Sequence record: LR597658
Source of the DNA: Escherichia phage VpaE1_ev108
Reading direction: 5' to 3' (one strand)
Length of the DNA: 64,000 nt
The notes beneath the pieces were generated by a model, which was not told the DNA's origin, did not search any database, and saw only the letters and a list, made by a program, of their open reading frames with translations. The translations under genes and the position numbers were made by a program. Shown piece by piece: positions 4,969-5,065 of the stretch; positions within the stretch are counted from its first letter, which is position 1; every line of letters begins with the position of its first letter.

Positions 4969-5065
4969 ATTTAGAGGTCAAGTGAAAGACCGCTTTGAGT
5001 CAACTGAAGACCGTAACAAATTCCACGGAGTTGAGTTAGCGGCACAACTCCAGACCTCTTCTCAC

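Follow-up and report, generated by a model that had tools for sequence, protein, structure and literature searches.

The question raised by this locus is what is encoded by the 97-nt spacer at 4969-5065, which fills the gap between the genes for tRNA-Thr(TGT) and tRNA-Val(TAC) in the tRNA array of Escherichia phage VpaE1_ev108 (accession number LR597658). The window, i.e. the whole 64,000-nt stretch of DNA that was analysed, contains 26 tRNA genes between 2263 and 7237, all on the + strand, and the other junctions of the array are mostly 1-8 nt long, so that a 97-nt gap is unusual there. The upstream neighbour, tRNA-Thr(TGT) (4893..4968, +), was called by ARAGORN, scores 52.9 bits with the Rfam tRNA model and has an encoded CCA, while the downstream neighbour (5066..5140, +), regarded as only “Val-like” in the preliminary description of this DNA, is in fact an ordinary tRNA-Val(TAC) according to both ARAGORN and Rfam (55.8 bits). 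The gene order around the spacer element is Gly, Thr, element, Val, Leu, Arg, DUF7338. The phage group is Felixounavirus: the 3.5-kb stretch around the spacer is 97-99.6% identical to Felixounavirus genomes, the closest genome being that of VpaE1_ev78, and Felix O1 itself shows 96.6% identity. The element can be placed within the tRNA transcription unit, as a promoter-like site with 11/12 matches is located upstream of it at 3671-3699 and the terminator scan found no terminator-like site on the + strand between that site and 6386. An RNA annotation of the spacer is lacking in all of the phage records possessing the Thr-spacer-Val block, and in a few of them a hypothetical CDS has been placed over it, for example 51A of wV8. 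No description of the spacer was found in the Felix O1 genome paper, and the literature search returned no transcriptome study or RNA-seq data on Felix O1-like phages.

The spacer had been described as structured and not a tRNA, and this is upheld here, since the element is conserved in ~250 phage records, its helices covary and it is no more diverse than the tRNAs on either side. The explanation we favour, with a probability of about one half, is that the spacer specifies a structured non-coding RNA of small size (~87-97 nt), which would be functional as a free RNA and would belong to no described family. Judged from its sequence, the element is a new RNA family of narrow distribution within a known kind, namely the non-tRNA RNAs of phage tRNA clusters.

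All parts of the element are given for the + strand. It is preceded by the linker ATTT (4969..4972), which resembles in sequence the AATTT-type linkers of 4-8 nt between the other tRNAs of the array; the ...CCAAATTTA context of the repeat families D1/D2 is found after many of these tRNAs. The two ends of the element are joined by the closing helix P1, in which AGAGGTC (4973..4979) pairs with GACCTCT (5053..5059), as the covariation of this helix also indicates; these strands are the flanking inverted repeat noticed previously. The 5′ strand of P1 is followed by the purine-rich joining segment AAGTGAAAGA (4980..4989), in which TGAAA is invariant in the alignment. The 7-bp hairpin ggagttg/caactcc, also noticed previously, is present as well and is referred to as P3; it consists of GGAGTTG (5027..5033) and CAACTCC (5045..5051), has 100% of its cells paired in the alignment and encloses the 11-nt loop AGTTAGCGGCA (5034..5044). 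It is perfect only in the present isolate, pair 2 being G.U and not G-C in most relatives. A single base, A5052, separates P3 from the 3′ strand of P1, after which comes the variable linker TCTCAC (5060..5065), with a length of 5-7 nt among the variants and a diversity of 0.129 compared to 0.034 for the element. A third helix, P2, was missed in the preliminary description and comprises 4 bp between CCGC (4990..4993) and GCGG (5039-5042). As the 3′ strand of P2 is located inside the P3 loop, P2 and P3 either form an H-type pseudoknot or alternate with each other, and the connector across P2 is only 2 nt long (CA), which would be tight should the two helices coexist.

The region between the 5′ strands of P2 and P3 is occupied by the near-invariant core GTCAACTGAAGACCGTAACAAATTCCA (4999..5025), which contains the previously noticed motif gaagaccg (GAAGACCG) at 5006-5013. 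In the alignment of 23 distinct sequences, the Av-05 group described below included, 25 of the 27 core positions are invariant, and the core is presumed from this to be the functional interface of the RNA. An optional small hairpin with the stem GTC/GAC (4999-5001/5009-5011) and the 7-nt loop AACTGAA may form within it. The more general motif GAAGACCRW is five-fold enriched in the window, with 10 copies compared to 1.9 expected, half of them (5/10) lying within the tRNA array. Two disjoint perfect 7-bp Watson-Crick stems occur in 0.6% of 20,000 mononucleotide shuffles of the 97 nt. The minimum free energy (MFE) of the spacer is -29.3 kcal/mol (z = -3.2), and none of 200 dinucleotide shuffles folded as well.

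The Thr-spacer-Val block was found by BLASTN (at least 80% coverage) in 253 phage records, belonging to Escherichia, Salmonella, Shigella and Citrobacter phages of the genera Felixounavirus, Mooglevirus and Suspvirus, and the element is single-copy and syntenic in ~250 Felix O1-like records. It was also detected in a small unrelated group comprising Av-05, TH18 and 18-1-2 (classified as Vequintavirinae, with genomes of 120-134 kb), where it is located directly after tRNA-Gly and is followed by a protein gene and then by a DUF7338 homologue. A tRNA-Gly/element/DUF7338 module is common to the Felix O1-like phages and the Av-05/TH18 group; when region 4811-5877 of the window was compared with L003 (1453-2437) and L026, the DUF7338 protein was 78% identical and the DNA of the element ~78%, so that the Felix and Av-05 lineages differ at ~22% of its positions. 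The common module points to tRNA-array modules having passed horizontally from one coliphage family to another. The core is identical in the two lineages despite wholly diverged flanks, the sequence downstream of P1 being unalignable between them.

Scans of IMG/VR and metagenomes with the exact core yielded extra members of the Felix-type and Av-05 groups only. The covariance model of the element (R1) finds exactly one copy per genome and matches only the window, L062, L074, L026 and L003, with nhmmer agreeing on which sequences hold the element; there were no R1 matches in L061, L063, L025, the DUF7338-bearing T4-like loci L027-L034 or the T4 tRNA region. L061 and L063 are relatives, and the DUF2828/DUF7788 proteins encoded upstream in them share 63% and 56% identity, respectively, with that of the window. 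In L061 the entire Thr...Gln block is missing, and in L063 the Thr-Val spacer (15110-15144) is 35 nt long and carries a plain 7-bp hairpin TCGGGCA/TGTCCGA in place of the element, which is therefore dispensable for the tRNA array as such. The element is absent from E. coli genomes, the sole match in 5,426 genomes being 24 nt long with E = 3, and the reverse-complemented core has no further match in the window when up to 3 mismatches are allowed; a host copy or a long antisense target was rejected on these grounds. In the Felix-type set of 16 distinct sequences, 9 of the 87 sites of the element are variable and its per-site diversity amounts to 0.034, which is within the range of 0-0.145 observed for eight neighbouring tRNA genes.

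For the analysis of base pairing, 39 distinct variants were collected and 23 non-redundant cores were aligned, with a mean column identity of 94% and hence a shallow phylogenetic depth. The 5′ end of the Av-05 group was misaligned by MAFFT and was corrected by hand, with 2 nt trimmed and two N placeholders inserted, so the counts for P1 depend on this manual register. In P1, the Av-05/TH18 group has U-A in place of G-C at pair 4, other sequences show G.U variants, and 95.6% of cells are paired. At pair 3 of P2, L070 has A-U and L090 has G.U, the other 21 sequences having G-C, and 100% of the cells of P2 are paired; the double change in this helix comes from a single metagenome contig and is carried by no isolate of the phage collection. 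In P3, pair 2 is G.U in 15 sequences, G-C in seven and A-U in one (wV8), G-C replaces A-U at pair 3 in the Av-05 group, and wobble variants are found at pair 1 (G-C or G.U) and at pair 5 (U-A or U.G in Mooglevirus). Over the 23 sequences the P1/P2/P3 model has 98.3% of its cells paired, and in each helix one pair is changed on both sides, so that every helix is supported by one double change plus wobble variants. The covariation score of the model was reached by 0 of 500 shuffles, and in controls with slid partners 34-46% of cells were paired. This pattern of substitutions shows that the predicted scaffold of three helices, P1 (7 bp), P2 (4 bp) and P3 (7 bp), is under purifying selection. The selected structure would be that of an RNA read from the + strand, i.e. 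in the direction of the tRNAs, since the G.U pairs, present in 15 of 23 sequences at one pair of P3, would be C.A mismatches on the other strand.

A competing fold, the rod, keeps P1 and P2 and replaces P3. It is the thermodynamic optimum for Felix-type sequences as well as the RNAalifold consensus and consists of ~27 interrupted base pairs, the rod-specific ones being formed by TCAACT (5000-5005) with AGTTGA (5029-5034) and by CCGT (5011-5014) with ACGG (5025-5028). In most Felix-type variants, nearest-neighbour energies put the rod 4-12 kcal/mol below a nested fold in which P3 is imposed, and the two are equal in Av-05, TH18 and L074. In these three most divergent versions the MFE fold consists of P3 and the small GTC/GAC hairpin with its loop AACUGAA. 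By our count, about eight independent substitutions have occurred in P3, all of them compatible with pairing, while among those in the rod-specific helices three are compatible and four, in L012, wV8, TH18 and L074, are disruptive. For this reason P1-P2-P3 is taken as the conserved fold, and the rod is a possible alternative state of the element.

The rod also provides the starting point for the main rival explanation, in which the spacer would act in cis within the tRNA precursor, in its processing or as an insulator, and would have no function as a free RNA, much as the preliminary description had offered a processing signal as one option. In its variants, the rod would serve as an RNase III-type or RNase E-guiding site separating the Thr and Val halves of the precursor, or as a folding insulator against mispairing of the tRNAs. 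RNase III processing hairpins are well known from polycistronic transcripts of T7 and lambda, and the rod resembles them in being an interrupted hairpin of ~27 bp inside a polycistronic transcript. The position of the element between two tRNAs inside a long transcription unit, the status of the rod as both MFE fold and RNAalifold consensus, and the plain 7-bp hairpin found in the same Thr-Val spacer of the distant relative L063 all agree with such a role. However, processing evidently does not need an element of this kind, as most other junctions of the array make do with a few nucleotides, and the substitutions that disrupt the rod-specific pairs leave these pairs without evolutionary support, in contrast to those in P3. 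Moreover, an invariant sequence of 27 nt exceeds what a structural spacer needs and, together with a competing conserved hairpin (P3), is untypical of RNase III sites, and in the Av-05 group it is a protein gene, not a tRNA, that follows the element. A purely cis-acting role is for these reasons considered rather unlikely, although it is the rival that fares best.

If the spacer instead encodes a free RNA, as we favour, it would be transcribed from the + strand as part of a polycistronic tRNA precursor and released by the maturation of its neighbours, its 5′ side being set when the 3′ end of tRNA-Thr matures and its 3′ end when RNase P cuts tRNA-Val free at the 5′ end. The closing helix P1 would then protect or stabilise the ends of the RNA, the stacking of P1 on P3 and the pairing of the P3 loop with the upstream segment would give it a loosely tRNA-like shape, and this scaffold would present the invariant segment 4999-5025 to a partner, either protein or RNA. 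The likeliest function for such a molecule would be that of a decoy or binding platform working in trans in connection with tRNA metabolism, any named partner being much less likely. The current view of phage tRNA clusters is that they counteract the depletion and cleavage of tRNAs by the host; the non-tRNA RNAs within them, T4 RNAC and RNAD for instance, have lacked an explanation for decades. A more elaborate and decidedly improbable version of this reading is that of a bistable tRNA-shaped RNA, which would alternate between the pseudoknotted P1-P2-P3 fold and the rod, both using the GGAGUUG strand, would serve in trans to lure away or sense a host factor attacking or handling tRNAs (e.g. 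an anticodon nuclease or a processing or repair enzyme), and would spread between unrelated coliphage families in the mobile tRNA-Gly/element/DUF7338 module.

The nearest precedent for the proposed RNA is provided by RNAC and RNAD of phage T4 (the stable RNAs “species 1” and “species 2”), which are non-tRNA RNAs of the T4 tRNA region with roles that are still unknown (PMC3014915, PMC9697503) and which are annotated as rnaC and rnaD in the T4 record NC_000866. Like the element, they are small non-tRNA RNAs co-oriented with the tRNA genes among which they lie in a virulent coliphage. They differ from it in their location at the end of the cluster, the element being situated between two tRNAs, and T4 rnaC has a canonical T-arm CCGGGTTCGAATCCCGG, which is lacking in the element. 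Homology was rejected, as cmsearch of the T4 tRNA region with R1 and the filters off gave no match at either gene. The element would thus represent a compact and well-delimited second example, after T4 RNAC/RNAD, of unexplained non-tRNA RNAs in phage tRNA clusters, and it concerns a large and widely used genus including the Felix O1-like typing and biocontrol phages. Deletion and complementation should be straightforward given the testable fold, the invariant core and the existence of natural variants, namely L061 and L063, which lack the element, and Av-05, which has it and lacks the Ro60-like system discussed below.

The second rival explanation makes the spacer a divergent member of a family of stem-loops found in the same array. 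The four members of this family are interleaved with the tRNAs at 2428-2512, 2595-2672, 3051-3132 and 3138-3275 (+), as judged from repeats and folds, and have no match in Rfam. Each of them is closed by a 4-bp terminal helix, directly after which A-N-A is bulged on the 5′ side opposite one G; then comes the inner helix AGACCNN/NNGGTCT of 7 bp (AG-N5:N5-CU, then GG), with a CAGCA box a few nucleotides beyond its 5′ strand. Orthologues are present in L061, L062 and L074 and, in divergent form, in L063; all of them keep the boxes CA-N-AAG, (T)NCAGCA and CU-GG, and the inner stem covaries freely, as exemplified in L063 by CATAAGACTAT...GTAGTCTGG and CAAAAGTGTCT...GGACACTGG.

The family is located just downstream of an ORF of 471 aa (682-2097, +) with the domains DUF2828 and DUF7788, assigned to a PHROG named ‘RNA-binding protein’. 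A sequence search of this ORF against the PDB gave no match. Its AlphaFold (AF2) model, with a pLDDT of 88.8, was compared with the PDB using Foldseek, and the top 11 matches were all full-length matches to Ro60/TROVE proteins (E from 1.5e-8 to 3e-7), Thermus phage Ro60 among them. The predicted structure consists of a TROVE ring and a vWA domain with the DxSxS MIDAS motif, and on the strength of this model the protein is homologous to Ro60 at the structural level. Its own homologues number more than 2,300, many of them on contigs as large as big phage genomes. The four stem-loops downstream are good candidates for the Y RNAs of this Ro60-like protein. The fourth of them (3138-3275, +) contains a T-arm-like hairpin GAAGGTTCGATTCCTTC (3165-3214, 22 bits with the Rfam tRNA model), a stem-loop and the D-loop-like sequence GTAATGGTAG, an order similar to the permuted tRNA-like arrangement described for the Y RNA YrlA.

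The spacer element itself could be compared with the Y RNAs (YrlA, Yrl1/2) that act with Ro60/Rsr, the gene for the Ro60-like protein being located 2.9 kb upstream. Like the Y RNAs, the element pairs its two ends in a stem and leaves a purine-rich motif unpaired, and both are connected with tRNA mimicry (PMC4201824, PMC12135203). According to this second rival, the spacer RNA would bind the Ro60-like protein via a common C-N-GAAGACCGU motif at a helix-bulge-helix junction. The 9-mer GAAGACCGT is indeed common to the spacer and the family members at 2601 and 3144, in the rod the motif becomes a GAAGA bulge between two helices that resembles the AGA of the family, and Ro60 contacts mainly one strand of its site (PMC4201824), which can be counted in favour of this reading together with the presence of the Ro60 homologue. 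However, this 9-mer is all that the spacer has in common with the family, which the preliminary description had suggested as its possible relatives; the defining boxes CA-N-A, (U)NCAGCA and CU-GG with their terminal helices are absent or altered. Instead of the 5′ box CA-N-AAG, the spacer has CTGAAG, with T for the invariant A, and this lies 30 nt inside and not beside the terminal helix; the 3′ box GGTCTGG is absent from the + strand of 4969-5065, and since AGTTG follows ACGG, only 4 bp (CCGT/ACGG) are possible compared to the 7-bp inner helix of the family. When up to 3 mismatches are allowed, the pattern AGAAGACCNNNTNCAGCAA detects all four family members and not the spacer, which has GTAACAAAT at this place. 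The 9-mer mostly represents lineage-specific stem sequence of two members and not conserved boxes, and as the inner stem covaries freely, the GACCGT common to these members and the spacer is variable stem and no signature of the family. Pure chance is an unlikely origin of the common 9-mer, which may be a record of old recombination or duplication.

The known Y RNAs also differ from the spacer. The Ro-binding motif is defined as GNCGAAN0-1G or of the GGUCCGA type, near the 5′ end in a bulged terminal stem (PMC4201824), with additional T- and D-like arms in YrlA, whereas the 5′ region of the spacer reads GGTCAAGTGAAAG (GATGTCAATGAAAT in Av-05) and contains no GNCGAA or CGAA; the Rfam models RF00019 (Y RNA) and RF02553 (YrlA) have no match in the spacer. 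Finally, the distributions disagree: Av-05 keeps the element, and neither the Ro60-like gene (TBLASTN at E<=1, profile HMM at E<=10) nor a family member was detected in 120,000 of its 120,938 bases, while L061 and L063 possess the gene and the family and lack the element. Binding of the spacer RNA to the Ro60-like protein is accordingly regarded as improbable, and the four-member family is a better Y RNA candidate than the spacer element. The non-tRNA RNAs of the array thus sort into at least two unrelated classes, which bears on how the adjacent Ro60-like/Y-like RNA system is to be read.

The third rival considers the spacer a decaying tRNA gene or a functionless remnant conserved merely through close phage kinship. 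The element occupies a tRNA-sized slot, has an acceptor-like 7-bp stem and shows weak similarity (71%) to a T-arm region (repeat family D20), and the overall divergence of the sample is low. As in a tRNA, a 7-bp terminal helix has a hairpin next to its 3′ strand, the loop of that hairpin pairs with an upstream segment, similar to the T-loop/D-loop elbow, and a central 7-nt loop is present. On the other hand, the element has no D stem, P3 consists of 7 bp and an 11-nt loop compared to the 5 bp and the 7-nt GTTCRANNC loop of a T arm, U33 is missing from the central loop AACUGAA, and neither a CCA nor a discriminator is present. ARAGORN made no call in the spacer, and the Rfam tRNA model (RF00005) gave no match at E<=10 even when only 116 nt were searched, so the spacer was rejected as a tRNA and its tRNA-like reading is architectural only. 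Decay is also at odds with a diversity not above that of the working tRNAs in the same genomes, with the compensatory changes in three helices and with a core that has stayed identical in the Felix and Av-05 lineages though the sequence beyond P1 can no longer be aligned. A remnant is therefore an even poorer explanation than binding to the Ro60-like protein.

Several other comparisons were made. With lax filters and 116 nt searched, no family of Rfam 15 matched the spacer, the best score being 12.2 bits for snoR101 (gathering score 40), followed by 6.8 bits. No intrinsic terminator was detected by the terminator scan in 4969-5065, P3 and P1 being followed by AGACC and TCTCAC, respectively. 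The core resembles the decoding-site sequence UGAAGUCGUAACAAGG of 16S rRNA, and a mimic of this site was rejected: in local alignment, the spacer and its reverse complement score 20 against the E. coli rrnH operon, compared to a shuffle mean of 21.7, and 265 of 300 shuffles score as well. A hammerhead reading of CUGAAGA...GAAA was rejected on inspection, as the order of the elements and the GAA required after stem II do not fit, and no ribozyme model matched. A scan of 185,579 genomes with an 18-mer of the core gave 16 matches, in bacterial genomes, approximately the number expected by chance, with nothing common beyond the 18-mer, and bacterial homologues were rejected. Most of these matches lie in glutamine-amidotransferase genes, which is explained by the reverse strand of the core (5000-5025, -) spelling GICYGLQL, a peptide that resembles the catalytic-cysteine motif of class I glutamine amidotransferases; this is judged to be a coincidence. 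A small protein-coding gene, be it the + strand ORF 4955-5131, the - strand ORF 4971-5156 with GICYGLQL in its product or one of the annotated hypotheticals, might be supposed from the ORFs on both strands, the CDSs in some records and the amidotransferase matches, and is ruled out by a 1-nt indel at 4994-4996 that would alter the frame and divides the variants into approximately equal halves, quite apart from both ORFs running through tRNA genes, the variable sites not being concentrated at third codon positions (16, compared to 15 at second and 10 at first positions) and the 16 matches being the chance expectation for an 18-mer in 596 Gb.

Other non-tRNA gaps of the array, all on the + strand, also have features of their own. 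The 247-nt gap 3656-3902 shows weak matches to the Rfam tmRNA and permuted-tmRNA models (29 and 16 bits, below threshold), contains a tag-like frame at 3749-3781 (ANDNVFLAVA*) and has no ARAGORN call. It is strongly constrained, being 96.7% identical in L061 though the Ro60-like proteins are only 63% identical, and may encode a phage tmRNA-like RNA. The 69-nt gap 2754-2822 contains a T-arm/acceptor-like remnant GGTGCAAGTCCTTAGCC..., 61% similar to the 3′ halves of tRNAs (family D2), and may be a decayed tRNA. Long inverted repeats are found in gap 3274-3417 (22 nt, 95% complementarity, arms 100 nt apart) and in gap 4472-4561 (26 nt, 85%, arms 38 nt apart), the latter also having a weak microRNA-precursor-like Rfam match and overlapping small ORFs.
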